A stretch of DNA of 64,000 bases from Squalus acanthias (GCA_030390025.1 CM059431.1:104844001-104908000); one strand, 5' to 3'; positions 5,664 through 48,509 are shown, counted from the first letter of the stretch. The notes: generated by a model from the letters alone, not told the origin. Numbers and translations are program-made.

Positions 5664-5864
5664 TAACTCAACCTTAATGTTGATTTTGAAGTAAATTACA
5701 TGGTAATTCCTCTTGGTGCAATCTCCTGGTCTGCACACCGTGCCATCAGCCCACATGAGTGAAAAGCCAGCCAAAATGAGTGTTGTTTGTGTCTATTCCT
5801 GGAGTGGTTACTTAAAGATAAGCTTTTGAATTTTGATCGCAGCAACCTAAATTCATAAAATGGG

Positions 5865-5966
5865 TAATAAAAAGAGAAAATGCTGGAAATACTCAGCAGG
5901 TCAGGCAGCATCTGTGGAGAGAGAGAAACAGAGTCAAAGTTTCAGGTCGATGACCTTTCGTCAGTT
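5865..5966 (-). mobile_element. Penelope-like terminal fragment with hammerhead core
   Basis: Minus strand CTGACGA-A-AGGTC-atc-GACCT-GAAAC. Same terminus as 4972-5060. Confidence 0.8.
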
Positions 5967-5977
5967 CTGAAATGTTA

Positions 5978-6287: not shown

Positions 6288-8857
6288 CAGACCTGTCTTT
6301 GCAGCCTCCTCTTCACCAGGGAGGTTGTGACTGACTGGTTCCATTGGGTGAACCTGATCTTGCCAGGAGCAAGGATCCATGCGGACAGTACAGCCTCACA
6401 AAATGACCCTTTCAAGATAAAGAGTAGCTTCCCCTATGTTGTGGAGAGTGATTTAGTTATGTAATTGCGATACCTATTCATCTACTTGCAGTCGGTAAGG
6501 AAAGCAGTAATTCTCCAGGAACCAACGAATCAATGCTTCCTGCATTATTTCTGAGTTGTCCCACTACAAACATCTTTCCAACTTTTTTCAAGCGATATGT
6601 GGCACTTTTCCCCCAATTCTACACCCCAGAATACACCCAACCCCCTCCCCCCCTTGCAACAGCATAACCTCTCATTCATGCCAGGGCAGATTCCCCAGTT
6701 TCTTCAATATTGGGCATCAGCAAAAACAGCCCTTCAAAATAAATGACTTAAAAATTGTTGGAATTCCCATCGAAATGAATAGGAATTTATTCTACTTACT
6801 TAATAGTAATGATTTTTTTGTGCCAGTATGTTATGTGATTCAATTTACGTCCTTGAATTTCAACTGTCCAAATCTCAACCTAATCAATTTCACATTTGTC
6901 GCTCACACGTTTCACGGCCCTGTGTTTGTCAATTGCAGTTACTCAAAAATAAAGCAGAACATTATGTCTGGCAGGTGTAAATATAAATGAAATAACTGTA
7001 GTTTGGAAAGTGTGCTATGGTAAGTCATCCAATATATCACAAATATGCGACCAGTTTAACATCGGATATACGGCACAGAAACAGGCCATTCGGCCCAACC
7101 AGTCCATGCTGGTGTTTATGTTCCACTCGAGCCTCCTCCCAGCTTTCCTCATCTAAATCTATCAGCATAATCCTCTATTCCCTTCTCCCTCATATGCTTG
7201 TCTAGCCTCCCCTTAAATGCATCAATACTATTCGCTTCAACCACTCCCTGTGGTAGCGAGTTCCACATTCTCACCACTCTCTGGGTAAAGAGGTTTCTTC
7301 TGAATTTCCTATTGGATTTCTTGGTGACTATTTTATATTGATGGCCTCTAGTTATGCTCTTCCCCACAAGTGGAAACATTCTCTCTGTATCCACACTATC
7401 AACATTTTTCATAATTTTAAAGACCTCTATTAGGTGACCCCTCAGCCTTCTTTTTTCAAGAGAAAAGAGACCCAGCCTGTTCATCCTTTCCTGATAGGTA
7501 TACCCTCGCATTTCTGGTATTATCTTTGTAAATCTTCCAGTGCCTCTATATCCTTTTTATAATAGGGCGACCAGAATTGTACGCACTACTCTAAGTGTGG
7601 TCTAACCAAGGTTCGATACAGGTTCAGCATAACTTCCCCACTTTTTAATTCTATACCAATAGAAATAAACCCTAGTGCCTGGTTTGCTTTTTTTATGGCC
7701 TTGCTAACCTGTGTCGCAACTTTTAGTGATTTGTGTATTTGTACTCAGAGATCCGAGACTTAATGGCACAGTTTTAAAGAGTGTGTACGGAGAAAGGGAC
7801 CTGGGAGTTAATGTGCATAGGTCCCTGAAGATGGCAGGACATATTGAGAGAGTGGTTAACAATGCATATGGGATCTTGGGCTTCATAAATAGAAGTATTG
7901 AGTACAAAAGTAGAGAAGTTATGCTGAACCTTTATAAAGCGCTGGCTAGGCCACAACTGGAGTATTGCATCCAGTTCTGGTCACCACACTTTAGGAAGGA
8001 TGTGAAGGCACTTGAGAGGGTGCAGAGGAGATTTACCAGAATGGTTCCGGGGATGGTGGATCTTAGTTACAAGGACAGGTTGGAGAAGCTGGATTTGTTT
8101 TCATTAGAGCAAAGGAGGTTGAGAGGTGATTTGATAGAGGTGTACAAGATTATGACGGGTTTGGATAGGCTAGACGGGGAAAGGCTGTTCCCACTAGTTG
8201 ATGGTACAAGGACTAGGGGACACAGATTTAAGGTTTTGGGCAAGAGATACAGGGGGGATGTGAGTAATAACTTTTTTATGCAGCAAGTGCTGAGGACCTG
8301 TAACTCGCTGCCGACGGAAATGGTGGAAGCGGAGACACTCAATGATTTCAAGGGGAGACTGGATAGACACTTGAGGGAAATAAACATGCAGGGCTACGGG
8401 GATAGAGCGGGGGAATGGGACTGATTGGATTGCTCTACAGAGAGCTGGCACGGACTCGATGGGCTGAATAGCCTCCTTCTGTGCCATTATGACTCTATGG
8501 GGGAAAAATTAGGTCGCGCCCCGTTTGGGGCGCAAATATCGTCTGGACGCAAAAATTAGCGCCTGGCGCTAATTATTGACACTGACTGGAAACTTCACTT
8601 TTACCGCCCCGGGAGGTGAGTGGAGCGCTAAATCAGGCGCTGCACACCTGTCTTAAGGCGCAAAGGCCGAGCAGTGAGGCGCTAACTCAGCGCGCGAGCG
8701 CAGCGCAGGTGCTGCCAGTTAGCGAGGGAACACAGACACACTGGCGCCGGCCAGTTCTTAAAGGGTGGGGGGGGCAACTTGCTCCCCAGCCACACCCTGC
8801 TCATTGCAGCCTTGATCTCGGCCTGGAGAGACCTGTGAATCCATTTTGCTGCCAAGG

Positions 8858-10680
8858 ATGGAGAGGGTGAGAGAACGAGCTCAGCGCTTCACCGAGCGGG
8901 CCTTGGATGCTCTGGTTGGCGCGGTGGAGCACAGAAGATCTATACTCTTCCCTGAGAGTGGCAGGAGGCCTTTGCCACGCGAGTACAGAAGAGTGTGGAG
9001 GGAGGTGGCTCAGAGCGTCTCCTCCAGGAGCATGGTGCCCAGGACCCATGTCATGTCAATGCCGCAAAAAGTTCAACGACCTCACTCGGGTCGTCAGGGT
9101 GAGTGGCTTTTTCTCAATACCTCTCCATCCCTCCATCTCAACCTCACTCTATGGCCAGAGGGACTTAAAACCCCAATGCACAACACTCATCCAAACCTAT
9201 GGTCCTTTCATGAAACACACACACACATTCCACACTTTGCATACAGTAAGGGCTATTCACCTATGGGAGGCACATCAGGCAAGACCATGGCTGCATACAG
9301 TAAGGGCTATTCACCTATGGGAGGCACATCAGGCAAGACCATGGCTGTATATTTACTCAGATGCTGTCCTTTTTCTTGCAGGCCAAGCTGGCGCATAATA
9401 GGAGACAGCAGCAACGGACAGGTGGAGGGCGGCCTCAGATGCAACCCCTCAGCGATCTTGAGGAGCGCGTCCACAGGATTGTGGCAAGCCGGGTGATCGG
9501 TCCCTTCGCCACTGGAGACGCCGACCCCGTTCTGGACAGCAATGGTAAGGTCATCACATTTTTGTCCTCTGTCCTTCCACTTGTCCCTCACAACACCAGC
9601 CTTTGACACTTTCAATCCAACTTGCTAACTCGCTGCACTTATTCCTCCCTTACTGCCACCCTGTCCTCACGCTAAAGCCACTCTTGTACCTCCCTGCTTT
9701 CAGATGGTGATTCACCAGCTGAGGAGATGGGCCCTGAAGCTGCCAGTGGGAGTGAAGCTGCAGCCGAGGAGGAAGAGGAAGCCGGAGCATCAGTGCCACC
9801 CTCTCCCGAGGATGCCCATGCCCACACTGGGAACACGCCTTCCCTGGAGGGGAGCAGGGGGGAAGGGTCTGATGAGGGTGAAGCTCCAGGACCCAGCGGG
9901 CTGCAGCAACGCCATGGGGGTAGGGAATAACGGGGGCCTTCTCCCCAGAGGGAGAGTATGCCAGCGACTCCTACTGCAATGGACGCAGAGGAGGAGCGGC
10001 TGATCGCAGAAATGAACACCCAGGCGGTGGGCATGCACACTGAGCTCATGGGTGCAGTGGGAAGGGTGCCCGAATGCATTGAGTCACTGGCAAGGAGCGT
10101 GGAGCACTTCGCTGTAGCACAGGCGGATGCCACACTAAAGCTTAGTGCTGCAATTCAGTCACTGACTGCCGTGATCCCATCTCTGACTGCTCTCATGCAG
10201 ACTCAGATTGAGGCCACGCGAGCACTGACTGCTGCCAACCTCGATGGTTCGTTCACATGTCCCCGGGGCTCTCACCGCGCCGCAGCAGGCCAGCAATCTG
10301 TGCTCCAGCAGATTGCTCCGGATGCTTAAGTGCTGCCCCGTGGGAGTGCCAGTGTGTCGGTCGAGCAGGGAATTGCTGTCCTCTCTCACGATGACAGCAT
10401 TCCTGCTGCCAACACTGTCACTTCTCCACTGCACTTGCCACCGCCTGTAGGACAGACTGCTGCCGCCCATGCAGAGTTGGTGCAGTCTGCAGCTGGGCCC
10501 TCCAGGCCCAGAACTGGTCGAGGCCGTCCTTCAGGGGCATCTGCAGTGTCAGGGTCTGACAATCAGGAGCCTTCCACCAGCCTTGCTGCAGCCACTGAGG
10601 TCCCATTACGGAGGAGCAGTAGGGTTAGAAGGGGGGAAGTGCACAAGGGAAGGAGATCACCCTCGAAGGGCAAAAAGTAG
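8858..10680 (+). pseudogene. Harbinger Myb/SANT-like DNA-binding partner gene; exons 8858-9098, 9382-9544, 9704-10680
   Basis: RAQRFTERALDAL..W..VA..QCRKKFNDL trihelix motif, then AKLAHNRRQQQRTGGG. Canonical GT-AG introns with compatible phases. Frameshift near 9050 and in-frame TAA stops at 9928 and 10327. Confidence 0.88.
9238..9345. repeat. Perfect 54-bp tandem duplication in Harbinger intron 1
   Basis: tgcatacagtaagggc...gaccatggc, two copies starting at 9238 and 9292. Confidence 0.95.
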
Positions 10681-10993
10681 GAGGTGTGACAAAATGCTGG
10701 TCATTTTTTTATTAAAGGCCGAGGTTCGTGGTCCAACTTTTGTCTAGTGTTTTGGACATTATCTCCAGGTTGTGAGAACCAGTTATGTTAATGACTGTTT
10801 TTTTTTTGTTTATTTCTATGAGTTTGTCATGAGGAAATGACACACACAGAGTTTGTAAAATAAATAAGTTTTTGTATTCAAAATATACATGTTTGGTGTT
10901 TGGAATCATTGGTGCCTTGGCTGGCTTAGGGGTTGCGTGCTGGGTTCATTGATGTTGTTAGCAATGGCAGAAGCCATTTCCACAGCAGGGGCC

Positions 10994-12154
10994 CTAGAAG
11001 CGGCTTGCTATCAGCCGTTGACGGATGGCCCTTGCAGTTTCACCATTGTGGGCCGCCCTCCCGCCTTGGTGCTGCTGATGATCATCCTCCTCGTCCTCTT
11101 CCTCCTCTTCCTCCTCCTCCTCTGGTGGTGCTCCAAGGCCTGGTGGCATTGGCTGGGCCCTGACGATTGCCATGTTATGCAACATGCAGCACACAACTAC
11201 GAAGTTGGATACTCGCTCAGGCGAGTACTGCAGGGCTCCTCCAGAATGGTCGAGACAGCGGAACCGTTGCTTCAGCACGCCGATTGTGTGCTCAATGATG
11301 TTCCTGGTAGCTTGATGGCTCTCGTTGTACCGCAGCTCAGCAGGGGTGTTGGGCGTACGGAGCGGTGTCATCAGCCAGGTGCTCAATGCATACCCCTTTT
11401 CCCCGAGAAGCCAAACAACTGGCTAATGCGGTGCCTCGAAAAGTTCTGCCACAGTAGTCTGGCGCAGGATGAAAGCATCGTGGCAGCTGCCAGGATAGTG
11501 GGCATTGACAGCGAGTATCAGCTGTCTGTGGTCACAGACCAACTGAACATTCAAGGAATGGAACCCCTTTCTGTTCCGGAAATCCTCGGCATTCTCATGT
11601 GGAGCACGCAAAGCCACATGCGTGCAGTCAATGGCGCCCTGCAACATGGGGAAGCCCGCTATCCTCGCAAAGCCCAGAGCGCGGTCACGCTGCTTGTCTA
11701 GGGTCATGGGGAAAGAGATGAACTCTCGTCTCCTTTTAAAGAGGGCATTTGTGACCTGCTGGATGCAGCAATGCACCGCGAACTGGGAGATATTGGCGAG
11801 GTCCCCAGCAGCAGCTTGAAATGAGCCAGTAGCATAGAAGTTGAGAGCCACTGTGACCTTCACTGCCACCAACAGAGACGTCCTGGACCTCAGTTGAGGC
11901 TGCAGATCTGGCTGCAGCAGGTGGCAGAGCTCAGTGACCACCTCCTTGCTGAATCGCAGCCTTCGCAAACACAGCTCCTCAGACATATGAATGTAGGAGA
12001 GTTGTTCACGATATACCCTGGGAGGGTAAGCTCTCCTGTACAGACGCCTGTTGGCCCTCCTCCGTCTGGCCATCATTGCCACTCTCTCTCTGCGTCTCTG
12101 TGTCCTCCGATTCAGCTGGAGCAGGACGACGCCCCCATTCAGTGCAGCCCCCAT
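10994..12154 (-). pseudogene. Harbinger (HARBI1-like) DDE transposase, about 386 aa, one premature stop
   Basis: [59 protein letters not shown]. ORFs 11423-12223 and 10994-11386 are in one frame, separated by TAG at 11423-11425. Confidence 0.93.
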
Positions 12155-15100
12155 AGTCTCTTTGCAAGCAAAGTTATGAAGGACAGCAACCAAAGTACCA
12201 GCGAAGTTAGGATCAGTAGGCAAAACTACCTCACAAAGCGTTGACTCAATGCAGAAGTCTCTCTTTCTCTCTCTCCGAATCTCTCTCTCTCTCTCAGAAC
12301 GAGTGGTGCAAAAATGTCAACCACAGAAAAAGACAGGTAGAGGCCCCCTTTAAATAGCGCCCCCCCCAGCCCCACAGCGATTGATAGCGTTCCAGTCTTC
12401 CGGTCGTTGGATGCGCCAGGCGGTAAGGCAGGGGGCGCCACTCAATTTCCGCTCCGGGGCGCCACAAGGGCGTTGCACCATGGAATGACGTCACAATCTG
12501 CGCGCGCAGGTGGTCGCAGCGGTACAGTTTAGCGCCGCCGCACAATGTCTAGTTAAGTTCCCGAGCAGCGCAAACATCGCTGCGCCCGGGCACTAGCGGC
12601 TTTGCGCCCCATTAGTGCCCTCTTAAGGCGCTAACGGGAGGCGCAACCAACTGAATTTTTCCCCTATGACTCTATCCCTTTGTGCCTCTACCCCACCTAG
12701 ACTCGCACCCTCCAAGTGATAAGTGAACTCCCTATTCTTCCTACCAAAATGTAATACCTCACATTTATCTGTGTTGAACTTCATTTGCTAATTATATGCC
12801 CATTCGGCAAGTTTATTAATGTCCTCCTGTAATTTGTTGCAGTCTTCCTCAGTATTGACTATCCCCCCCAATTTGGTGTCATTCACAAATTTAGAAATTG
12901 TGCTTTTTATTCCAAAGTCTAAATCGTTAATGTAAATTGTGGACAGCAGTGGTCCCAGCACTGATCCTTATGGCACACCACTACCCACCTTCTGCCACAC
13001 TGAATAGCGACCCTTTATTCCTTCTCTCTGCTTTCTGTCCGGAAGCCAGCCAGCAATCCATTCTGCTACTTGTCCCCTGACTCCGCATTCTCTGACCTTG
13101 TTCATCAGTCTATTATGGGGTACCTTATCGAAGGCCTTTTGAAAATCCAGATAAATTAGATCTACTGCATTACCATTGTCTACTCTCTCTGTTACAACTT
13201 CAAAAATTCAATAAGGTTGGTCAAGCAAGACTTTCCCTTTTGAAATCCATGCTGACTATTCCTTATTATATTTTTCATTTCTAGATGTTCTATTCTCTCC
13301 TTTAGTAGGGATTCTATTATTTTTTTCTACCACTGATGTTAAGCTGACTGGTCCATAATTCCCTGGACATGTTCTATCTCCCTTCTTAAATATCGATATT
13401 ACATTAGCTATCCGCCAGTCCTCTAGCACTACACCATTTTCTAATGAATTATTAAATATGTCTCTGCTATCTCTTCTCTAGATTCTTTTAAAGTGCGTGG
13501 ATGCAATCCATCCGGACCAGGGGTTTTATCCTCTTTGAGTTTGATTATTTTATTTAATATATTTCCTTTTTTATTTTAAATGCACTTATCTCATTACTAA
13601 TCTCATCATTCAATGTCATGTCCACCTGTTCTATCTCCCTCGTAAATACTGAAGCAAAATAATTATTTAATATTTCTGCCATCTCTCTACTCTTACCTGT
13701 GGTATTATCCTCACTATCCCTTAATGGCCCTATTCCCATCCCAACCTTCCTTTTTTTATTGATGTGCCTATAAAATATTTTGTTTTATGTTTCTTGATAA
13801 TTTAATTTCATAGTTCCGCTTTGCCTCCCTAATTGTTTTTTTTTGACTTCTCTTCTAATCTTTTCGTATTCTCCCTTATCATGCACTCCCTTGCTGTCTA
13901 TGTACTTAATGTATGCCTCTTTCCTTACCCTCAATTGTTCCCTTATGGCTTTATTCATCCATGGAGTCTCATTAGTGTTTAGTTTGTTTTTTCCTTTTCG
14001 CGGAATATATTTTTCCTGCACTCTGTTGAACACCGTTTGAAATGTTCTACATTGTTGTTTGCCTATATTGTTGCCCATTTTTTTCCCCAAATTCTATTCC
14101 CAGCCCCTCAAAATGAGCTTTTCTCCAATCTATTAACCTGGTTTTCGTCATACTTATATCTTTCTCAATTATTATCTTAAAGCATATTATATTATGGTCA
14201 CTATTGCCTATATGTTCCCCTACTTTTACTTCTCTTATCTGCTCTGGTTCATTCCCCATTACTAGATCCAATAGCGAATCCTCCCTCGTTGGGCTTTTTA
14301 CATATTGGGTTAGAAAGGAGTCCTGTACACATTGTAGGAACTCCATTCCCTTATCCCCTTTACCTACCTCTTCTGTCCAATTAATATCGGGGTAGTTGAA
14401 ATCCCCCACGATTATTATTCTATGTTTTTTACTAATTTCCCTAATTTGTCTGCATATTTCTTCCTCCACCTCCCTTCCACAATTAGGTGATCTGTCGACT
14501 ATGCCTATTAGTGTGATTGATCCTTTATTATCTTTTATCTCTATCCATATGGATTCTATTTCTGTCTTGCTGATATCTGCGTCACTTTTTTCTACTGCCA
14601 TTATGTTATTCCTAATAATTTCAGCTACTCCACCTACCCTTTTTCCCTCCCTATCTTTTCTAAATATGTTATACGCTGCAATGTTTAAGTCCCAGTACTG
14701 ATTTTTCTATAGCCATGTCTCAGTAATCCCTAGTATGTCTGGTTTCTCACAACACATGATTGCCTCCAGCTCCCCTTTTTTATTTTGGACACTATGTGCA
14801 TTGCTGTACAGACAGTTTAACTCATTTTTAATAGGATTTCCTCTCACTTTATGTTTAACCATCTATTTATACTCCTGTTCTATAACTCTATTTATTCCCT
14901 TGCCATCAATGTCCTCCCTTACTTTATTCTTTCCTATGCTCTCTTTTCCTGTTTTGGTTATATTTAGGCGGGTTACATTTCTTGTAGATCCCTCCCCCCA
15001 TCTTACTAGTTTAAAGCCTTTGCCACCTCCCTATTTACCCTTTCCGCTAGAACACGGGTCCCATCTGGGTTCAGGTGGAGCCCGTCCCATCAGTACAGCT

Positions 15101-17016: not shown

Positions 17017-17496
17017 CCCTCCCTTTTCTGAACTTATGCTTTCCTTTGGGGTGTGACTGTATTGTCGATAAAACTGTCCAGAAATTCCTCCCCCTCCCTT
17101 ATGTCTCCAACTCGCACTCCAGCTCAATGACTCTGAGAAGGAGAGATTCGAGACGGAGACATCTCCTGCAGACATGTTCGCTCAGGACAGTCTCGCTGTC
17201 CACAAACTCCCACATACTGCAGTCCAGACACACAACCTGCCCTGCCATATCTTAGTCTAGCCTTATTTTATTTATTTAATTAGTTAAAGTCTTTATTCCA
17301 CAATTATTTATACTTACATTAATTAGTTTAACTAGTTAAGCTATAAATTTAATACAGTATGTTATAGTTTCCCGCTCCTAGTTTGAACCACTGTTTTAGT
17401 TTAGAGAGAAAAAAAAACCTTAATACTCACCAACCAATCACCTACCTGCTGTCCTGTGACGTCACACCTTATTTGTGGAAATCGTGGAAGCTTCTG

Positions 17497-17767
17497 CCGC
17501 CTCCGCTGCCTCCGATTAGGTCGGCGCTGTTCCTTCGCTCGCTCCTTTATGTCCCGCCGCCTCCGCCGCTGCCTCCGATTAGGTCGGCGCTGTTCCTCCG
17601 CTCTCTCCTTTATGTCCCGCCACCTCCGCTGCCTCTGATTAGGTCGGCGCTGTTCCTCCGCTCTCTCCTTTATGTCCCGCCGCCTCCTCCGCTGCCTCCG
17701 ATTAGGTCGGCGCTGTTCCTCCGCTCTCTCCTTTATGTCCCGCCGCCTCCGCCGCCTCCGATTGGGT
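17497..17767 (-). repeat. GC-rich 57-60 bp tandem monomers (about 4.5 copies) at the CR1 5' end
   Basis: Unit ccgcctccgctgcctccgattaggtcggcgctgttcctccgctctctcctttatgtcccg. Confidence 0.9.
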
Positions 17768-18949
17768 GATTATCTTTTTTGAGATGTCACGATTGGTAAC
17801 TGTATGCATGTCTGTGCATATATGTGTTTGGATAGAGGTGGAAGGATTATCATGTTAATAAATATATATGTAGATGGAATTCATTTCTAGAATAACCCTG
17901 AATTTAAAACAAAAACCTTTTCACAATAGCAATACAGGCAACGTAACTCCATCCTTATTAAAGTAAAGGTCAGCCAATATTTAGTGGATTTTATCAAGCT
18001 CGATTCATTTTCTGCTCCCTTCCCTCGAATCAGTCTCTATATAATTAGTTTATAGTAAGAAGACAACATGGTGCTACAGAGTACATTACCCTTTCATTTC
18101 CCTTGTGCATTCATCAAATCATGATAATGGCGATTAATAAAATCGCCAGAGACTTACAATACAGTGCCTGGCCATTCCTACTCATCCCAGCTGGGCACTT
18201 TCTGACCTTTCAGCACATTACCATTGAGTGGACCTAGCCCTTAATTCGCGTTATAGAAGTAACGTATCTATAAATTATTTAACAACCTTAAAATAAATAT
18301 GCTTTGAAAAGGGACATAAGTTACAACAAAATATTAAGAAACCATTCGTGTACTTCTTCCATGCCTTTGCACCATGACAGGAATCCTTGTTAAATTCTAC
18401 CTGCAAACCATGTATTTCCCATTGTAGCTGATCCGTACTGGAGTGACGGGCTCAATTGATGAATGACATAATGTGGTTATAAACATCATTTGACAAGGCA
18501 ATGTATGTTCTCAGTGCAGAGAAACTTAGAGCAGGACGCTGATGCCAGTCTACAATGTGTCAAGCCGTCAATTGGTATCATCAGCCACCTAATTTTTCAT
18601 TTTATGCCGCTTACTCCCACATCTTGAAGAGACACATCGAAAGTTATGAAATCCGTCTGTCGCAATAACTTCACTTAGTATTACATTTTGCGTTGACAAT
18701 CCCTCGATAGTCGAGTAAGGCTGTTTCTCCGCATACAAAAAAAAAGAGATTTGAGTATTCAGATTGTCCACGGCTTTTGGTGAGCATTTAGAGGGCTTCT
18801 TAAATCAATCTGAGAGAGACATATGTTGTACCACGAAACTGACATATGAAAGACAACCCAGTTCATGGTATAGTCACAGCAGACTCTGTCTTCTGTCTAC
18901 ATTTCTCCTCTTCTTTGGCAATGCTAGCTTCTTCAAACTCATGAACTCC

Positions 18950-21224: not shown

Positions 21225-21249
21225 CCATGATGTGGAGATGCCGGTGTTG
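21225..21249 (-). mobile_element. 25-bp Penelope-like terminal micro-insertion in a CR1 tail
   Basis: Reverse complement of caacaccggcatctccacatca (as at 29760-29778 and 41412-41430). 8-bp TSD GAAATAGG. Confidence 0.75.
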
Positions 21250-22194
21250 GAAATAGGAGCAGGAGTAGGCCAATTGGCCCCTCAAGCCTGCTCCGCCATT
21301 CAATAAGATCATGGCTGATCTGATCCTAACCGCCAATCTACTATCACAGAACCATGTCCTGAACCTAACAGAATTGGACACACGAAATAGGAGCAGGATC
21401 AGGCTACACGGCCCCTGGGCCCGCTACGCTACCCACAGGGCCATGACCGATCTGAACCTAGACTCCTGTCCAAATTCCTGCCCGCTCCCCGTAACCTTTA
21501 AGGCTTCTGCCCTGTCCGGACAAATTTATGCACACGGTCATTCATTCCATCACTTCCAAGCCCCAGCCCAGAGACAAGCACCCGGGGGCTTCAGACGAGC
21601 GATAGGGGCATCAGCGGTCACGCAGAGTTCAGGTTGCCAGGAGGAAGAGGAGGTCGAGGAAAGTGATCACGACAGCTCTGGCCAGATGGTCCAGAGGTGT
21701 CAGACTTTGCCTGAGGACCTTTGGGACTTAATTGTCACAGGACCTGCTTTCAAAAAAAAGAATACTAATGGAGCATCGAACCCATGTGCGAGTATTGCAG
21801 AATATCTCGCAAATCATGCTGCATAATCCTAGTCTGTTGGAGGAGTCCGTTGCCAGTACAGGAATCAGCATAGGGGAGCTAATTGTGTAAGGGCAGGGCA
21901 GAATCAATCATATTACTTTCCTCCATCTGCTAGTTTAACAGAGGCAGAGGCATTAACCTGGAGAGATAAATGTTATTTGAATGTGTTAAACATTTGTTCA
22001 CTGATATTGCCAACAGTAATTTCTAGCTTCATGTGACTAGTATGCTCTTCAAGGCTGCTAGTTTTCAATTTTCACAGACGAAAGACAGAATCTGTGACCC
22101 CCAAAATCCATAATCCCATGTAATAAAAACAAAATTTGTCTTAATCATTAAAGGCAAACTGGTGTCTTGATTATAGTAACACCAATTTATTAAT

Positions 22195-22325
22195 ACAAAA
22201 GCAAAATACTGCGGATGCTGGAAATCTGAAATAAAAACAGAAAATGCTGGAAATACTCAGCAGGTCAGGCAGCATCCGTGGAGAGAGAAACAGAGTCAAC
22301 GTTTCAGGTCTGTGACTCTTCGTCA
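22195..22325 (-). mobile_element. Penelope-like terminal fragment, truncated inside the hammerhead core
   Basis: Minus strand TGACGA-AGAGTC-aca-GACCT-GAAACGTT. TSD TTTATTAAT at 22186-22194 and 22326-22334. Confidence 0.85.
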
Positions 22326-27123: not shown

Positions 27124-29350
27124 TTTTTATTTTACAATTTCCATTATCCATGATCACTGAAAAGGCATTTTCCATAGATAAGTCCGCAGCCCCTATGATT
27201 GGAAACCCCTTATGCCTGCTGTAAATAGGAGTCGTATGCTGCAGAATTGAAAATTGCCCTTTTACCGAGTTACTTTGCACCAGAGGTTTGCACAGGTCAC
27301 TCACCAATTACTCCTGTCATCTGCAAAAGATAGAAAACACCACGGTTTCAGACTGTATATTTCAGACCAAAAGTAGTAATCAAATTTATTGACTAGATTT
27401 ATAATTACACAGAAGCAAATGAAATACGGCACAGCAATACAAAATGGAAATCCTAACTTTCACATGAATGTTCCTCCAAAATTAGTGACATGAATCTTGT
27501 CATTCATGTGGAAATGACTCATGAAATAATACTGGGCGGCCTGCTGGTGGCGCTGTCCAGGAAGAGTATAAATACTCGGGCATGGGCCCAGCTTGCCCAG
27601 GACATTCTTTAACAGGAACTAGGAAGGACACAACTAAACCTCCATGTTGAAAAACAGTTGATTAAAGCTTTGTTTAACGCTTAGACCAAGTGCCTAGTAG
27701 TTTTCTTACGTCAATGAGAAAGTTTCCAAATTCTTAAAAGTTTTTCTCAAAATGTTTTAAAAGAATCTTTGGGTTTGTAGCATGGGTGTGACTTTGTCCC
27801 ATCTCGCTGCTGGGAAACAAATGGTTGACGCAGAGAACGTGGAAGTTAAGGAATGGCAAAAAATCTGTGAGCCACACCAAGAGCCTCTGAATGAAGAGCT
27901 GTCAATCTCTCAAAGCCATACAACGGCCGGAATTTTCCCGACTGAGTTGGGTCAGGTGCGTGCGGGTCGCGTAGCGGGTCGGTACCACGATGTATTGATC
28001 AGCCCACCCTTCATAGCGACTTTAGCGTGATGGCCCCATTAAGGCAGACATGCGGATTTCCCGGACCTATTAAATGGTGCGGGTCTGATGACATCATCGA
28101 TGACTCATTTCCAGCGAGGATATTTAAAGCAGCCTTGGCCAAATCGCATTTGAAGGTTCATGTAGGGGTGCGGAGGGAACATTGGAGAGGAGTGTCTTGT
28201 TGTTGAGAAATAGAAAAATGAGTTCACAAAGACACAGGGCTGCACCCCGCTTTTCCGATGAATAGCTACACATTCTTGTGGAGGGAGTCCGAGCACGCAG
28301 GGAGGTCCTCTTCCCTGCAGATGGGCAGAAAAGATCTCCCCAAGAGACCAATAGGGCCTGGCTCCAAATTGCTGAGGAGGTCAACAGCAGGGATGTCGTA
28401 AGGAGGACCTGGATACGGTGCAGCAAGCGCCTCAAGGATCTGATGAGATCAGGAAAGGTGAGTGCAAGGCCACACTCACCCTCATCCTGAAGTACCTGTC
28501 AACACCTCCCCATCACTTTGCCTTCCCAAGCCTACTCCTGCACATCATTACTCACACCAACATACCTAGCACGTCCACCCATCCCTCTCTCTCTATGTAC
28601 ATACTCACATCCCCATCTGACTAACCACCCCTCACACTCACACTCATGCTAATGCAATCATACCAACTAACAACACAGAAGGAGGCCATTTGGCATTGAC
28701 ACCACACTCCCTCATAGTCACCCTCTGCAGATGTAACCCACACAATCCTTACACTCATTCCATCAACTCTCACTCAAACTTCTCTTCTTTCCCTCCTTGC
28801 AGGAGGAGAGCGGACAACAACAGGAAGAGAGAGAGAACCGGAGGTGGCCCTCCATCCTTCAGTACTTTAACTGCAGCAGAGGAGGTGGCCCTGGAGGTCT
28901 CAAGAGTTGCAGAGCTGATGGCGGTGGGAGACGGAGAGAGGGGCACCTCTCAGCAAACTGGTGATAGAATTACAGCCACATGGCATACAGCAGTCACTCA
29001 TATGGTGACTGATGTCAACAGCCAGTGAATGTTCATCATGTGCAGAATTGTATCGTTACTCATTCTTAATATAACATTTCTAAATCATCTCTTTACTCTC
29101 CCACAGGTCCAGCAAGAACCACCCCCCCCCCCCCACCCCACTGTCCAGTTGGAGGAGGAAGACGACTCCTCAGAGGAACCTCCAGCCTCTCCGGGTGCAC
29201 CGTCAGCAAGCGCACCCAGCACCAGCGCAGATACGCAAACCTTGGCGGGTCCTATGCGAAATAGAGTAGTGTTGTCACCTGGTGTCTCACAAGTCACAAG
29301 TGTGAGAAGTTGTACAACACCAGGTTATAGTCCAACAGATTTATTTAAAA

Positions 29351-29388
29351 TTACAAGCTTTCGGAGCTGTCGCCCCTTCGTCAGGTAA
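29351..29388 (-). ncRNA. Minimal type I hammerhead ribozyme
   Basis: Exact reverse complement of 29658-29695. Confidence 0.85.
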
Positions 29389-29657
29389 AGGTACAATGAA
29401 GGAATCTACAATATTACACGGTATATAAACACAGAAACTGCAGAGATACAATCTTTCAGGGAAGCATTACTTCAAAGACACACCAGAGCACAGCCAAGAC
29501 AATGAGATGGATCACAGGGGGTCCAACGTGTCAAATCCTGCTGTCTGCAGTTGAGCTTTTAACTTTTTTTTAGTTTTTTTTTGTGTTTTGTGTTTTTTTT
29601 GTGTTTTTTTTAAAACTGAATATACCGTATAATATTGTAGATTCCTTCATTGTACCT

Positions 29658-29695
29658 TTACCTGACGAAGGGGCGACAGCTCCGAAAGCTTGTAA
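29658..29695 (+). ncRNA. Minimal type I hammerhead ribozyme
   Basis: TTAC-CTGACGA-A-GGGGC-gaca-GCTCC-GAA-AGCT-T-GTAA: stem I TTAC/GTAA, stem II, palindromic stem III AGCT. Predicted cleavage after 29691. Confidence 0.85.
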
Positions 29696-30837
29696 TTTTA
29701 AATAAATCTGTTGGACTATAACCTGGTGTTGTGCGACTTCTCATTGTCCACCCCAGTCCAACACCGGCATCTCCGCATCAAGTCACAAGTGAGCAAGAGC
29801 AGGTGGTGTTGACAGGGACAGCAGTGGAGACTCCTCGCCGGAGGGCGCAGGGCACTCCCAGCTCTGCTCAGCTGCATGCAGACGCTGAGCCTCGGGGGCC
29901 ATCCAGAAAGAGGGCGATCCTGGAGGGGCAGCAAGGCCTGCAGGAGGCTCTGGCAGCGTTTGCAGCCGCGATGTCTGAAAATGTGCAGAGAATGGAGGAG
30001 TCCATCTCCAACATGAGCACCACCATGTTGCAGGTGATGGCGACTGTAGGCTCTTCCATGGAAAAGATGGCCATCTGCGTGGAGCAGCTAATGCGCCACT
30101 CACATGAGCACATGTTAGCTATGGAGAATAGATGGCAGGGGCTCATAGACCTCCTCTCTAGGAGGGATGTAAACGTAGATGTGGGTCCTCGTGGCCCCAC
30201 TGATGTGCGGCAAGGTGCTCTCCAGCTCTTTGCTAGTAGGGAAGTGCGGGTGGCCCATGAGAGGGATGATGGTGAGAGGGGACATGCAAGTGGGGGCTCC
30301 TCTCAAAGCGCTCACACTTCTCTTTCATTGCCACCCCCCCCTTAGTCAGAGCCCCAGATGCTTCCTCGGATCGCGATGACCGAGTCTGCCCCTGCACAGT
30401 CGCAGGTGGAGCAGACTTTGGCGGGGCCATCACAGGCTCCAAAATCCAGAGGACGTCCGCCAAAAGTGTCAAAGCAGTCGCAGCAGGGCACTGAGCAGGC
30501 TGCCTCTACCTCTGCTGAAGCCACAGGGGGTGCACCTCGTAGAAGCACACGTAAAAGAAAAATGACACAAAAGTAGATTCACAAGGGTGAGCACATGGGT
30601 GTATAAAGAAGTGTTATTAAGGTTCCGTTACTGTTATGACACATATAAAAGTATTTATTTTCACCACTTTCCGGCCATGCCCATTTATGTCTGCTACTTT
30701 GGAAGTGGCTTTGTGAGTTGGAGTGAATGGTGAGACATAACGTAACCTCCAGCAATGGGGGTCAGTGTGAAAGGAATGGCTTGCTCATTGTAGGGATTCT
30801 TTCTGGTGTTGCTGAGGGTGGGGAATGGGTGGGGCGG

Positions 30838-40660: not shown

Positions 40661-41308
40661 TTAGGGAAGGCTAAATGACAAAGTGCGCAGGTACGCTATC
40701 CTTTTAACACTGAGTTCTGGGATTCAATTTAGTTCCTGACTGATGGGCGTCTAAAGTTTCAGCTTCGAGGGCTGCCCGGACATCCAGCTCCTGTCGCAGG
40801 GACCTCGCACAGCTGGCAGTGACCTTCGAGTGACCGCGCCAGATACGCCAAGGACCGCCACCAGGAAGAATCTATTCTTTCCTGGGTCATCCTGCCCTCC
40901 AGCTTCAGTAGATCCTAAAAGTTTGCTCTACGGTTGCCTCCGACACATGAATCGGCAGCTGGCATCTCTAGCACCTCACCCAGCGCAACAAAAATCAGTC
41001 CAATTCTAGCCTCTTGCACATGCCCGAGTTCCTTCGCCGCTTCATTGGCGGCCGTGCTTTCAGCCGTCTAGGCCCTAAGCTCATAAATTCCCTCTCTAAA
41101 CTTCTCCGCCTCGCTACCTCTCTCTCTTCTCCTTTAAGACGTTCCTTAAAACCTTCCCTGACTGACCTGTTTGGACACCATCCACACCTGTGATTGCCGT
41201 GATTGTCTCTCTGCCGAGGTGTGATAAAGGGCAGTTAGAAAGATTAACTGTAATCATCTGGCAGTGTTCTCTGACTATATATGCTGTGCCCATATGTATT
41301 TCTTCACT

Positions 41309-41345
41309 TCACCTGACGAAGGAGCAGCGCTCCGAAAGCTTGTGA
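41309..41345 (+). ncRNA. Minimal hammerhead ribozyme in a PLE terminus (about 41200-41430)
   Basis: TCAC-CTGACGA-A-GGAGC-agc-GCTCC-GAA-AGCT-T-GTGA, followed by the same terminus as 29696-29778. Confidence 0.85.
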
Positions 41346-41430
41346 TTTCAAATAAAGCTGTTGGACTATAACCTGGTGTTGTGCGACTTTTCACATTTGT
41401 CCACCCCAGTCCAACACCGGCATCTCCACA

Positions 41431-41941
41431 CCAAATCAGATACAGAAAGAGAAATAAAGAGAAGGAAAGCGAGATTGGATTAAAAGAGATAAAAAAGAGA
41501 CAGAAAGGGAAAGTAAGGAAACATTTTGTTTAAATGCAAAACTTGACATTTTTTAAATTTCCTAAAATAATTCACAACCTGAAGGAATGAGACTCCACAC
41601 TTAGTTTTTGGTGCCAGAGAGGTTGATTTGCAGTTATTAACACTTATCACATCATTAAAAGGGTACTTACACTTGTAATTACTAGCCGTAAGGATCTGTG
41701 GTGAGTTTAGTTCATTTTTACCACGCAAATACAGCAACTTCACGCCGTTCAATGATGAGGCAGATAGCGCAATGCCGTTTTCCCAAAGCTAACAGCGGAG
41801 CAGTGCAACTCGCACAGCAACTTTTGATATTCGCGTTTAACCGTGCACCTGCCCCCTCGCCTGAAGTTTCTGTACCATTTACGCATAACTAATGGTGAGC
41901 GCCATTAGCCTCACCGCTATTTTGACAGCAAAATCTGGGCT
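41431..41941. mobile_element. Partial Harbinger-type MITE related to 22650-24877
   Basis: Shared agaaagagaaataaagag...gattggatt block. End CAGCAAAATCTGGGC. Confidence 0.65.
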
Positions 41942-42779
41942 AGAAATGAAAGGAAGCAAAGTTTACAACATAAATAAAAGTGAGAAAAAAAGCCGGTAAA
42001 TTTCTGAAAATCTGATGCAAAAATGGAAAATGCAGGAAATACACAGTGAGCCTATCAGCATCTGTGAAAAGAAAAGACAAGCTCATGTTTTGGGTGTAAT
42101 CCTTTATCGGAATCTCTCAGTTTTCAGGTTTCATGAAGGGATTGTGTGATATCTTGAGACACAGCATATATATACAACAGCACAACATGGCTTCCAGTAA
42201 GAACTGCACTGCATATGGCTTTATTATTATATACATCAGTAGTCTACCAGGTGGCCTTCGTACACTTCTCCCTTTTTATTGAAGAAGTTAATCATAGCAA
42301 ATAATCAATATACATGACTTGCTTGGTATACACAACTCTTGGTATACATTTCTTAAATGGAACCTGTTTTACGTTTCCAAATTCTACTATAGAATTCTGT
42401 ACCACAAACAAAGGATATGAACTTATTTTCCAGATTAAACTTAACCACTGGTTTTCTGTTTCGAAGAGGGTACCTTCTTTCTTGAACAGAACTTTCAGAT
42501 CTTGTTGCAGGACTTTGACTCATTCTAGGCTGAGCCTGCGGAGAATTTTTCTCCAAGGGCTGACCTTGATCTACATTTGGACTCTTTACACTTTCAGACT
42601 GTTTGTCTGCCTGACTCAGGCTCAGACTTAAATTCTGGCTTTGTCTTGGACTTGTTTCTGGTACGTCTGATGTAGGATTTGCTCCTGGTACTCTACTTGT
42701 AACAAGACTATCTGACTCATCAGAATAAATTTATTCATCCCAGCTTTCAACTCCTTCCACATCTGTAGGTAAGATATGA

Positions 42780-45700
42780 TCAATGTGAACAAACCTTTCC
42801 ATGATCAAACATCTTGACCAAATATGTGTGGGGGCCACATATCTTCCCTACTCTTCCTGGTAACCACTTTAACTATTTATGGTGATGGTTCTTCACTCTA
42901 ACCATCTGTTTCAACTTCACACTTCTTTCTCTAACTCTACCTTTATCATGACTCTCTTTCTGCCTTGATTGTTTCTCTTCTACGGACTGCCCCAAGTTTG
43001 GCTTTAACAACGAGAACCTGGTTCATGGCTGTCATTTGGAAACAACTCTGCTGGTTTTCTACCAGTAGTGGTATGAGGATTATTCCGATAGGTAATCAGA
43101 CAATTTGCCAGTTTGTGGTCCAACGACAACTGACGTTTCTTTGGATTTGGATCCAACATTTGTTTGATGAGGGCACATTTGACAATTTGTACTGTGCACT
43201 CTGCTGCACCTTTTGAAGCAGGGTGGTATGGTGGAACTTTGGTATGTTTCACACGATTTCTGCTCATGAACTGTGTGAACACTTCTGAACAAAATTGCGG
43301 CCCATTATCAGACACAATTTCTTCTGGGAGGCCGTATGAAGAAAACAATCTTCGCAAATTGTCTAGTGTTTTGCTTGTTGATATTATCCGCATCGGAAAC
43401 ACCTCTACACGCTTCGAGTGACTATCTATCACTATGAACAATTGCTGTCCTTCTAGCTCAGCAAAATCTACATGTAGCCTTTGCCACACTCTGGGAGGCC
43501 ATTTCCATGGCTGTAATGGTACTGATGGTGGTTTCTTGCTCACCGATTGACATGTTGTACACTGACTGACTATGTACTCTATCTCTTTATCTAAACCTGG
43601 CCACCATAAGTAACTGCGTGCAAAGCTCTTGGTCAAGCACATTCCTAAGTGCTGGTCATGAAGATCTCCTAACAGTTTAGACCTGAACCTATTTGGGATA
43701 ACCACTTTTGCTCCCCACATGATACAATCTTTATCCACTGACAATTCATTCCTATGAATGAAGTATGGATGGGTATCTTCCTCTGATACCTGGTTTGGCC
43801 ATCCATTTGCTATGTAATCCTACACCTTTGACATAATTGGGTCATGTTTGGTTGCCTCTACCAATCTCTTCAGCTGTGACTGGCAGCTCATCAATGTATG
43901 AGAAATAGAAAACTTCTTCCTTATTGGGTGTAACTTGTGATGGGGATGGCAACCTGGACATAGCATCAGCATTATTGTACTCAATGTACGCTGACAAAAT
44001 CAAAGCCCATCTCTGCATTCAGGCTGCAGCTAAGGTTGGAACTGGGGACGTTGGATGGAGGATTGCAGTCAGGGGCTTATGGTCAGTAACTATGGTAAAC
44101 TTATGACCAAACAAGTATTTGTGAAACTTCCTGACCCCAAATATCAATGTCAAAGCTTCCCTTTCGATCTGCGCATAATTCCACTCACTGGCACTGAGAG
44201 TGCGTGAAGCAAAAGCAATTGGTCTCTCCTCCCCACTATCTAGTACATGAGAGATCACTGCCCCAACTCCGTACGGAGAGGCGTCACACGCTAGCTTGAT
44301 CTCCTTAGATACATCATAGTGAACTAACATGGTACTCTCTACAACTGGCTTTTACACTCTTTGAATGCTGTGTTGCATTCTTTTGACCACTTCCAAGGGA
44401 CCTGTTTTCTCAACAGCTCATTTAGTGGATATAACAATGTAGCCAAGTTTGGGAGGAACTTTCGGTCATAATTCAAAAGACCCAAAAATGATCGAAGTTC
44501 AGAAAAATTCTTGGAAGTCGGTGCATTTCTGATTGCATCCAGCTTCCCCTTGGTTGGATGTAAACCATCTTTGTCTACTCTGTGCCCTAAGCACTCCGCT
44601 GAGTTTTGAAACAACTCACACTGGTGAGCTGTCACTCGTACTCCGTGCTTCTCTAGCCGTTTGAGCATTTCATTCAACACCTCATCATGGATTTGCCTGT
44701 TTGGTGCTGAAACGAGTATGTCATCCAAATAACACACTACCCCTTCAATCCCTTGTAAAATTTGGTTCATCACCCCCTAGAATATGTATGGGGCAGAAGA
44801 CACTCCAAATGGTAGCCTATTGAACTGATACAGGCCTCGGTGAGTATTTATAGTCAAGCATGACTTGGACTCTTCATCTAACTCATGTTCTAGGTAGGCG
44901 TTTGTTGGATCTAACTTCGAAAAGATCTGGCCACCTGTCAGCGTTGTGAACAAATCTTCCACATTTGGCAAAGTATTGGGTAGATTACACTCTAGAACCT
45001 GGTTTATGGTTACCTTATAATCACCACACAACCTTACCTTACCATCTGACTTAGGTACAACAACAATGGGTGTAGCCCAATTACTCAGATCTACCTTAGA
45101 GATAATGTTCTCAGTTTCTAGTCTTTTGAGTTCTTGCTCAACTTTCTCCTTGAGTGCGTATGGTACGGGACGTGGCTTGCAGTAAACTGGTCTTGCGTCC
45201 TTCTGCACTCTGACACTCACCTTGAAGTCTTGGATCGGACTGCCCATTTTGCTGAACACCTTCGGGTACTGCTTGATGACATCATCTTTCAATGCAAATT
45301 TCACTTCCACACGAACAATCTCATTCCAATCCAGCTTCAGTGATCCAACCAATTTCTACCTATCAAGGCAGGCTTGTCTCCTGCCACTACTATGAGAGAC
45401 AAGCTCTGAAACTGATCCTTGTATTTCACTGGTATGGTGACACTTCCTACTACAGGGATTTGCTCTCCTGAGTAGCCTCACAGCTCTACCTTCGATTTTT
45501 CTAGTCGATAATCATGTAACTTGTCGCGATATAGTGATTCCGTTACTACGTTCACGGATGCACTAGAGTTGATTTCTGTTTCCTACGACATCTACTTGGA
45601 TGACGATACCTCGCGAATCGCTGTTAGATACCTTCGTGCTGCTGATGACGTGAATCTCTAGAAACTCCTCGTCCTGCTGCTTCTCTTCAATGGCATTGTA

Positions 45701-47299
45701 AGAACCGGATCACAGACTCACACAACAGGGCTTTAGAAGTTGTAAAGCTTTTATTAAAGAGCTACAGTTTTAAAGCATAATCAGATATTACATATGGTTT
45801 AAGCTGAGTATAATAGAGATACAACCCGTGACAGTAGAGAGCGATCTACGACTCCCGAAGCGGAACGCCACGACCGTACGGACGGTTGGTTGGATGTCTG
45901 ATGAGGCAGCGTGGAGGTCTCGGGTCAGCGAGTCTCTGCAATCAGCGCAGCAGTCACTTCTGTTGATTCATCCCCCGGGCTGTTGGAGGTGTTAGGCATA
46001 AGCCAGCATTGATCCACCTCAGAGGCTAAACTTAGTCAAGGTGTTAGGCCTCAGGCAGCATTGATTTCCACCTCGAAGAAGCCTTTGGCCTTCGCTGTCT
46101 GATTCCCTCTCTCAGCCCTCGATATTTATAGTTATTTTGGTGGGCTGTGATCTATCTAGTGTCAATCATCTATAATCCAAGTGTGGTGCGGGAAGACATT
46201 TCTCACTGCCCCTTTCTGCATGGCTGACAAGGCCTTTCTCTTATCTTTCTGAGGAATGTTTTGTTATGTTTCTTTAAGGACATTTTATGACTTTTCGGCT
46301 TCATTTTGTCTAGCTATGGTACCACCACCTGTGTTGTCTTGCATTTTACGATCCCCTTATCACTTTCAGGCCTTTCGGTGTTTGTTATTTGACCTTGCTG
46401 ACACTTCCCCCATTTATTCCTGACTGCAGTTTTAATTTCTGTTCTAAGAGTCAAACTTCATCTATGAATCTAATAGCTGTTTCTTACAGTATGTAGTGTC
46501 TGACGATTTCTACTTCTAGCATTGCCAGTCGGTTTACTCTTCTGTCGGCACGCCTTCGCAAGATGCCCAGTTTTCTTGCAGTAGAAACACTCTGCCTTCA
46601 CATATGGACAGCTTTGAGCGATGTGTTGTCCCAGGCACTGATAGCATGATTTCAATGCACTGTTACCTTGGCCAGTTGCTGAAGTTTTGGGGCCCAACTG
46701 CCTTTTACTTTTAGCCTGCGGCCGATTCACCTCGGTTGTCTGACGACTGGAAATGGCGCGGAACTCTCGGGAATATCGGTCGGCCATATCCATCGACATA
46801 GCTGTCTGACAAGCTAAGTCAAAAGTCAAGTTAAGGCTTGTCAACAATTTACTTATGATACGTTCATTTTTCAACCCACAAACAAAGCGGTCACACAAAG
46901 CTCGGTCCTGAAAGTTTCCAAAATGACAGTGAATGGATGTTTTTTTTAAAGCTGCATACCCTCGTGATTTAATTGATCGCTTGTTCCAAAACGATAACTT
47001 TCAGCAATTTCCAGGGGCTCAGGATTGTAGTGCTGTTCTAACTTGGTTAGGACCTCCTTCAGTGGCGTGTCCTTCGGCTTGGAGGGAACAAACACATTTT
47101 TTAGGGTTTCATACACCTCAGGGCCTGCTTCAGTCAAAAAAAAAGCCCGTTTCATTTCTAAAACCGCCCGGTTACGGTTTACATCATCGGGGACTTTGAC
47201 GATACTATTTGCGGTGAAAAACATTTCTAGCCGCTCCACATATGCTCCGAAAGTCTCTCGGTCGCAATGGAACTCACCCAAGCAGCCTATTATTCCCAT
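42780..47299 (-). pseudogene. Gypsy gag-pol polyprotein, disrupted by frameshifts, stops and an insertion
   Basis: ORFs 46946-47299 and 46470-46898 (gag), 44777-45352 and 44339-44773 (RT), 44019-44330 (RNase H), 43004-43744 (integrase). Confidence 0.9.
45697..46488 (-). mobile_element. Solo LTR, family B, inserted in Gypsy gag
   Basis: TGTAAGAA...TTCTTACA ends, flanks GCAT/GTAT, minus-strand TATAAATA and AATAAA. The gag frame (QTLHAIEEKQQ) is restored on removal. Confidence 0.85.
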
Positions 47300-48509
47300 A
47301 GACCGGCCATCTGGATTCGGGCAACGTCGACAGTTCAGCCACGTGTGTTCGAAATTTACCTCGGATTTTTAAGTTTTTCTGCAAAACAAAGAACCTCTAA
47401 CAATCCCTCCGTCGGTTGGCAGGATTATCCTCCAACAAAAATTTCAGCTAGGGAATCCGCAATTGCATCCTCATCGCCAATTCTGTGATATCTTGAAACA
47501 CAGCATATATATACAACAGCAGAACATGGATTCCGGTAAGAACTGTACTGCATATGGCTTTATTATTATATACATCAGTCGTCCACCAGGTGGTTCTATT
47601 ACAGATTGCACACTCAGAACGCCACAAAATGTCTTTTGATTTACACATTCTAAGTGGCCTGCTGTGTGTTTTCAGTATTTGCTGTTTTAAAGTTCTTCGC
47701 ACGTTTGCACGAATAGTTCACAATGACATTTGCACGCGTGCTCTTTGCAGTTGTCCAGTGCTGCTATCAGTCAGTGGAAGAGGCTATGATCTGTTCTCTC
47801 TATTGCTTTGCTTGCAGGAACTCAACTGCGGACCCGAATAGGTTACTTTGGTGGAACGGAGACTATAATCCTCATCGAAAGTGAGACATGTTTTGTGATC
47901 TTACCGCTTGTCAGATATCGTAAGTGAGAAAAATCACACCTTGTTCTGTTGCTGCCAGAACTGGAAAGGCTGCGGCATTTCTGCTATCAGAAAGACGAGG
48001 ACCCGATATCAAAAGGGACTGGAAGGAAGCATCTGTGGTGCTGTGTGAGAGACTGTTAGGGGTATGCGTTGAAGGGCTGTCAAACTCATTATTACAACAT
48101 AGACCAACGCACAGTGTGCTCAAGCAAGACATTATTAATTTTGGTCCCTTTTTGTCAACACATAGCCGTCAAAATAGAAAAGGGTAATTTTCTCTCTTTG
48201 TGCTCCCTGTGTTCTTCAATGACAGCACATGTTGGAAATTCGAGTCTATGATGTTCCGACCATTAAATTAATTGCATCGCACGCACCTGTATTCGCATTG
48301 CGAGCTCTCGGTGGGTGCGGTTCACCCACTGGGAGCACAAACTCGGAAAAATGCAGACTGCCGGGAAAGATCATTTTATCCTTGTTAACTCGTGTTGCCT
48401 CTTGTTACAATTCGGGTGCGCTCCAGATACTTTTACTCCTGCCCAGTGCAAAGGGTCATCCTTCACAGGTACGTCCACGGGCTCCCTATTACCCACAATA
48501 TGAACTTAC

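Follow-up and report, generated by a model that had tools for sequence, protein, structure and literature searches.

A head-to-head repeat insertion with a hammerhead motif on each strand in the Squalus acanthias genome, probably an inversion product of a Penelope-like element

We analysed a stretch of 64,000 nucleotides from Squalus acanthias (GCA_030390025.1, CM059431.1:104844001-104908000), which we call the window; positions are counted from its first nucleotide. Within a Myb-like gene copy in this window lies a 476-bp insertion (29303-29778) that carries a minimal hammerhead ribozyme motif on each strand. A previous interpretation made from the DNA alone (the sequence-only reading) had proposed that this was either a one-off inversion product of a Penelope-like element (PLE) or a member of a non-autonomous family that resembles the retrozymes. 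We find that the insertion consists of two copies of one terminal repeat, joined head-to-head, and its most probable origin is an ordinary, truncated PLE inversion product.

One target site duplication encloses two copies of a repeat

The insertion lies between two exact copies of the 13-mer CAAGTCACAAGTG (29290-29302 and 29779-29791, both on the plus strand), a target site duplication (TSD) that cannot be extended. Just 1 of 3,000 random 476-bp intervals reached a flanking match of 13 bp. The target is not AT-rich. We also considered whether the target resembles the element's own end, with which it has the 9-mer ACCTGGTGT in common, and this was not significant (42 of 1,046 random 60-nt stretches did the same).

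Inside the insertion, two inverted arms of 124 bp each (29303-29426 and 29620-29743) are identical at 121 of 124 positions, and of the 20 inverted pairs listed for the window (up to 3 kb apart), they are the longest. All three mismatches (29311/29735, 29313/29733, and 29417/29629) are C/T transitions, so between the arms there is no signature of A-to-I editing, which would appear as A-to-G. In its six frames, the insert has no stop-free stretch longer than 57 codons, and TRF found no long tandem unit in 29200-29900. The sequence-only reading was thus right about a 476-bp insertion with a clean TSD, about two near-perfect inverted arms, and about the lack of an open reading frame (ORF). The insertion is real and well preserved.

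The arms do not account for the whole element. At the right end, the arm is followed by a 35-nt tail (29744-29778, plus strand) that is found at this end only and that had been overlooked. Between the arms, the 193 nt that had been described as a T-rich spacer are of two kinds, and the description holds for just the last 63 of them (29557-29619). The other 130 nt (29427-29556) are sequence of the repeat family and extend the left arm on the minus strand. They align to the upstream part of a solo copy of the repeat elsewhere in the window, near 41158-41275 (score of 59.5 versus 28.9 ± 5.2; 0 of 1,000 shuffles). Furthermore, when contigs of four public runs (X1, X3, X6, and X17, the last of which is perhaps RNA) were compared with 29100-30000, this segment was covered by many contigs in three of the four runs. 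Because 130 nt continue the left arm and a tail follows the right one, the insert is a long, tail-less copy on the minus strand (29303-29556, at least 254 nt) joined head-to-head to a short, 5'-truncated, tailed copy on the plus strand (29620-29778, 159 nt), with the 3' ends facing outward. This anatomy does not match a miniature inverted-repeat transposable element (MITE) or another class II fold-back element, and we rejected that classification: the inverted repeats are not at both very ends (35 nt separate the right arm from the TSD), and the arms are the end of a hammerhead-bearing repeat that also occurs solo.

The linker between the two copies (29557-29619) is T at 45 of 63 positions on the plus strand, and correspondingly A-rich on the minus strand, with short (T)nGTG repeats. 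A palindrome, TTTTAAAA, lies at 29608-29615 and adjoins the inversion point. The linker occurs just once in the window. A comparison with the continuation of the arm gave no support for the linker being a stuttered copy of it, as 1,100 of 2,000 shuffles scored as well.

The empty target site and the host gene

In all four runs, some contigs join 29289 directly to 29779, with 13 letters that fit both sides (3, 3, 2, and 2 contigs). In X3, X1, and X6 there are also 87, 113, and 135 loose ends, respectively, at 29302 that continue into the sequence after the insert. It follows that the target was once present and that the 13-mer is a genuine duplication of it.

Excising the insert and one copy of the TSD restores an open frame in the surrounding gene copy (28218-30345, plus strand), in whose inferred third exon the insertion lies. 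The first exon matches Myb_DNA-bind_5 (PF13873, E = 7.5e-9), and for the downstream part a single homolog (37% identity) turned up among longer proteins; it is from a shark and is named myb-related. Codon 16 of this gene copy is an in-frame stop. We take it to be the Myb gene of a Harbinger-type transposon, which is supported by the high copy number of its flanks in the contig comparison and by a second Myb/DDE_Tnp_4 pair at 8816-12316. The empty sites are probably paralogous Harbinger copies and not alleles. In the Harbinger-type element at 8816-12316, the Myb/SANT gene (PF13873) and the DDE_Tnp_4 transposase gene (PF13359) are convergent, and both are broken.

A minimal hammerhead on each arm

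The two arms carry identical 38-nt minimal hammerheads of type I, at 29658-29695 on the plus strand (N17 at 29691) and at 29351-29388 on the minus strand (N17 at 29355). These are the motifs and coordinates of the sequence-only reading, and a minimal-hammerhead descriptor confirms them: it had three hits in the window (both arms and 41313, in the solo copy) and none in 100 dinucleotide shuffles. Each motif has stem I (UUAC/GUAA), the core CUGACGA with an extra A before stem II, a 5-bp stem II with G-C as its first pair, and then GAAA, GC, and UU. A palindromic AGCU replaces helix III, and 15.2-16.2 is palindromic; N17 is U, and cleavage of the plus-strand motif is predicted to occur after 29691. 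Folded alone, the motif forms stems I and II, with an unremarkable folding energy (z about -0.8).

Folding of the complete element gives a different picture. RNA of the full hairpin has a predicted energy of -267 or -262 kcal/mol, depending on the strand (z = -32 for -267). If the antisense arm is left out, then a hammerhead-compatible fold costs just 1.3-2.8 kcal/mol, and stem II forms with a probability of 0.76-0.9. In the full fold-back RNA, the penalty rises to 72 kcal/mol, and it is 68-69 kcal/mol for a nascent RNA that ends just past the motif, on either strand (overall range of 67.9-72.0 for full and nascent RNAs). Also, the arms diverge, so that read-through from either side should produce the antisense arm first and leave no kinetic window. 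The sequence-only reading had proposed a ribozyme that competes with the hairpin, and this is not supported, as the hammerhead fold is much less stable on both strands, even in nascent RNA. Instead, because the antisense arm would be transcribed first and because of the penalty of 68-72 kcal/mol, we predict that the hammerheads are masked by the hairpin.

In published work on similar motifs, minimal hammerheads had no activity as monomers and low activity as dimers (PMC4209133); a hammerhead from Anolis cleaved only with protein and was dispensable for insertion in vitro (PMC11167929); and eight of nine retrozyme dimers from Xenopus failed to cleave (bioRxiv 10.64898/2026.07.22.740005). In our computations, two copies of the motif co-fold via an AAGCUU palindrome, and both stem IIs are kept. 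This is what one would predict of a motif that acts as a dimer, but either strand of the insertion has a single copy. The hammerheads in the insertion are probably inherited passengers; helix III would need a second copy on the same strand.

A hairpin this stable, which lies sense to a Myb-like gene, might have been co-opted to supply double-stranded or small RNA for silencing of the PLE family or of the host gene. But the host copy has an early stop and is one of many paralogues, and the arm differences are all C/T, with no A-to-G. We consider a regulatory hairpin to be very unlikely.

Other copies and junctions of the repeat family

In the contig comparison, the arms, the upstream part, and the tail of this very abundant family were heavily covered, and none of the contigs reaches across the complete locus. 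The loose ends that have mixed flanks form two clusters, one at 29743/29745 (74 and 75 contigs, agreement of 0.41) and one at 29780 (126, 136, and 24 contigs, agreement of 0.38-0.43), which begins with about five common letters. The first two letters (CA) of the right TSD copy also match the way in which the tail continues in the family. The two end zones of the family lie about 35 nt apart, and both ends of the insert fall on them.

The window holds one copy of the arm-spacer-arm layout. It also holds a solo, non-inverted copy of the terminal repeat (41158-41432, plus strand), whose last 125 nt at the 3' end are about 89% identical. In its hammerhead, stem I differs in a compensatory way (UUAC/GUAA versus UCAC/GUGA), and stem II has a change from G-U to A-U. 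The solo copy has no clear TSD (the best is 6 bp). Its alignable start is close to where the long copy in the insertion meets the A-rich linker (about 29547) and may be the 5' boundary of the terminal repeat. Finally, a tail-only fragment of about 25 nt (21227-21251, minus strand) lies in the 3' end of a repeat that resembles a long interspersed nuclear element (LINE), with an apparent short duplication, GAAATAGG, which was read by eye. Outside of this genome, patterns from the element had no hits in metagenome contigs, prokaryote genomes, or viral contigs.

Among the 15 joints listed (with 151 more unlisted), eight are empty sites, two are deletions in the flanks, one is an internal deletion, and four run from the antisense to the sense arm at pivots other than that of the insertion; a fifth such pivot was listed separately. 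These five arm-to-arm pivots are 29343 to 29697, 29348 to 29698, 29349 to 29648, 29385 to 29663, and 29391 to 29677. Thus, fold-backs recur at variable pivots, as expected of independent insertion products. Two of the pivots in the related runs, 29385 to 29663 and 29343 to 29697, have depths of 46-166. The first lies at the 5' boundary of the hammerhead core and the second at a TTTAAA palindrome just after the core, which hints at preferred sites for fold-back.

These joints bear on a rival explanation, in which the insertion belongs to an amplified, non-autonomous fold-back family (similar to a retrozyme or a MITE) that depends on a PLE enzyme acting in trans, with the unpaired 35-nt tail of the plus-strand hairpin RNA as its recognition site. 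The clean TSD and the high identity of the arms speak for such a family, the tail does stay outside the long hairpin in the plus-strand fold, and pseudo-long terminal repeats (pLTRs) alone can mobilise sequence in trans (PMC3846280). Also, fixed junctions can recur: some other pivots in the relative have depths of 46-166, versus 6-35 for most of the single pieces listed. However, with one hammerhead per strand, no monomer would be excised or circularised. Both ends of the insertion are 3' ends of the family, which fits a primary insertion, while the 5' end of an RNA that had been copied again should vary. Furthermore, the junctions listed in the relatives have five different pivots, and the linker is present just once in the window. 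We therefore consider an amplified fold-back family to be unlikely. If it did exist, its hairpin RNA would derive from a PLE and would keep both hammerheads masked for good; such a family would be the retrotransposing equivalent of a MITE, and it would feed double-stranded RNA against its own parent.

The depth of coverage near the junction leans in the same direction, but we did not use it as evidence. Mean depth over 29596-29626 is 7 in X3 and 0 in X1, X6, and X17, versus 281,695 (X3), 130,369 (X1), 0 (X6), and 1,239 (X17) over the mirror interval at 29410-29440. These values come from contigs of a possible relative, in which a lack of cover carries no weight, with 29557-29617 masked and X3 read to about 55%. 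Similarly, we did not use the lack of cover over 29379-29657 in X6 (organism B), at 88% likeness.

The runs also show that the two arms have unusual letters in common. At 29420, A accounts for about 100% of the depth in both X3 and X1, while both arms of the insertion have G/C (29420/29626), and 29400/29646 likewise has letters that are common to both arms and rare in the relative's family. The two arms therefore likely stem from one source gene or one RNA, unless they were later converted.

Another alternative is two independent PLE insertions in opposite directions at one spot, or a rearrangement after insertion or an assembly artefact. The high abundance of the family and the lack of a contig across the locus speak for it. 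But a single TSD encloses both copies, with no inner duplication, and the three differences between the arms exclude a read-level mirror artefact, even though the rare letters are common to the arms. We think that this explanation is very unlikely.

A probable Penelope-like inversion product

We assign a probability of roughly 85% to an ordinary, truncated PLE inversion product. The insertion has the features of the PLEs that encode an endonuclease (EN+): a type-I hammerhead in the terminal repeat, a tail at one end, and an inverted, 5'-truncated copy within one TSD. (The putative membership of the family in the PLEs rests on its hammerhead, tail, and layout.) Between the two proposals of the sequence-only reading, the layout, the tail, the length of the TSD, the type of hammerhead, and the variable pivots all favour a one-off PLE product, while the retrozyme-like family has no positive support, and the tandem hammerheads on the same strand that would define it are absent.

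Within the PLE reading, we lean towards a two-primer step. The PLE enzyme would cut the two strands of the target 13 nt apart. The top strand would prime at the inner start zone, without the tail, and would copy at least 254 nt to give the left arm, while the bottom strand would prime at the outer start zone, with the tail, and would copy 159 nt to give the right arm. The two cDNAs would then be joined through the A/T-rich linker. In Anolis, a PLE protein that is a predicted dimer cuts the two target strands and extends both of them, and it has two reverse transcription start sites that bound the tail (PMC11167929). In the insertion, neither arm is a pure copy of the other, because each is accompanied by sequence that the other lacks (130 nt upstream or the 35-nt tail). 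As for the linker, contig cover of the family reaches the masked edge at 29556, so the linker may be native sequence of the parent. A smaller possibility is that it was made by reiterative, telomerase-like synthesis by the PLE reverse transcriptase as it bridged the two cDNAs.

A PLE inversion could also arise from one priming event followed by a fold-back or template switch (with self-priming at TTTTAAAA and possibly on antisense RNA), or the arms could have been homogenised by later gene conversion. The palindrome adjoins the pivot, the arms have rare letters in common, and self-priming has been proposed for PLEs (PMC3846280). On the other hand, a simple fold-back cannot give both the 130 nt upstream and the 35-nt tail, and at least one extra switch would be needed. 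We consider single priming to be possible but doubtful.

Several observations weigh against the PLE reading or its two-primer step. No ORF with a reverse transcriptase or GIY-YIG domain is attached to the terminal-repeat family in the window. The motifs do not match the hammerhead families of Rfam, with nothing at gathering score within the window (over the element there were seven weak matches, all far below gathering scores). The target is unlike the AT-rich targets that the Anolis PLE prefers (PMC11167929), and the explanation favoured in PMC3846280 for inverted junctions that have palindromes is self-priming on an antisense template, which TTTTAAAA would fit. The loose ends at 29743-29745 start with about ten common letters, as from a longer variant of the family, so that the inner zone extends over about 29743-29753 and the arm stops at its edge. 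Finally, the best runs contain just 46-47% of the words and may be from a relative instead of the source species, which also means that a "rare" letter is rare in the organism of the run; and the contig comparison was made with 29557-29617, at the exact junction, masked as a repeat.

Other elements in the window

A second hammerhead-like repeat family is represented by an insertion at 4972-5663 (minus strand) with an exact 15-bp TSD (4957-4971 and 5664-5678). This copy includes the broken end of an ORF, and stem II of its hammerhead looks decayed. The end of the ORF resembles the GIY-YIG domain of PLEs, and we presume that this second family is also a PLE; two 39-amino-acid pieces of the ORF remnant had no match to GIY-YIG in Pfam. 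Further truncated copies of the second family lie at 57049-57442 (plus strand), 5858-5977 (minus strand), and 22195-22325 (minus strand), with candidate duplications of 7, 7, and 10 bp, respectively. The copy at 57049 lies within the end of another repeat, and duplicated segments of flank follow the copy at 22195. The minimal-hammerhead descriptor missed the four degenerate hammerhead-like copies of this family.

Broken gag, reverse transcriptase, and integrase-like frames at 42353-47368 (minus strand), as read from their translations, presumably belong to a long terminal repeat (LTR) retrotransposon. A frame at 54421-55167 (minus strand) resembles in its translation the zinc-knuckle ORF1 of a Tx1/L1-type LINE. 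At 17401-17769 there is a tandem array of units of about 60 nt with open frames on both strands.

Comparison with known systems

The layout of the insertion is close to that of known EN+ PLEs (Penelope/Poseidon and Neptune). Complex insertions of PLEs include an inverted, 5'-truncated copy and a 30-40 bp tail at one end (PMC8557442), and an inverted pLTR with a 31-bp tail and TSDs of 8-10 bp has been described (Arkhipova et al. 2013, PMC3846280). As in these elements, the insertion has head-to-head copies with outward 3' ends, a single TSD, 5' truncation, a palindrome near the inversion, and a tail at one end only (35 nt here). It differs in that no ORF remnant is present, the TSD is 13 bp instead of 8-10 bp, the copies are separated by a 63-nt A/T-rich linker instead of overlapping at a pivot, and the tail is on the shorter copy. 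The origin of the inverted repeats and tails of PLEs is described as undefined (Craig et al. 2021, PMC8557442).

The motifs also agree with the hammerheads in the pLTRs of metazoan PLEs, as described in PMC4209133. These have the core CUGANGA/GAAA, the extra nucleotide, G10.1-C11.1, the palindrome at 15.2-16.2, a 4-bp stem I, and no helix III, and dual minimal hammerheads occur on opposite strands about 100-700 bp apart (Cervera and de la Pena 2014). Unlike in the Schistosoma families, where stem II is 7-8 bp, it is 5 bp here, and N17 is U.

In Poseidon PAc of Anolis carolinensis (Frangieh et al. 2024, PMC11167929), two end points bound a tail downstream of the hammerhead, as they do here, and two-strand cutting and extension would give the layout that we see. 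PAc differs in its preference for AT-rich targets and in having an ORF that starts inside the hammerhead, neither of which is seen here.

The non-LTR retrozymes of animals (Cervera and de la Pena 2020, PMC7229834; Li, Clavereau and Pollet 2026, bioRxiv 10.64898/2026.07.22.740005) are likewise non-coding and related to PLEs, with type-I hammerheads, GC content below 50%, and TSDs of more than 4 bp. However, they are arranged head-to-tail and release a circular RNA by means of two or more same-strand hammerheads, whereas the insertion is head-to-head with one hammerhead per strand. Given its inverted arms and the lack of a same-strand pair, we rejected a non-LTR retrozyme. The LTR retrozymes of plants, which as described have direct LTRs, type III hammerheads, and 4-bp TSDs, were rejected because of the inverted arms, the type-I minimal motif, and the 13-bp TSD.

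Our searches, which covered openly accessible literature listings and the papers cited here, showed neither an amplified family of fold-back PLEs nor a two-primer model for inverted PLE insertions, nor a shark repeat of this type; the excerpted part of PMC6155905 added nothing on sharks. Opposite-strand hammerhead pairs and the inverted layout have been published, and only a fixed, multi-copy junction would make the element new. We view the insertion as a small, clean fossil of a known process whose mechanism is unresolved. It is a useful data point because the arm-specific sequence on each side favours two priming events over a simple fold-back. More broadly, opposite-strand pairs of hammerheads in PLE-rich genomes should not be taken for ribozyme replicons of two polarities.

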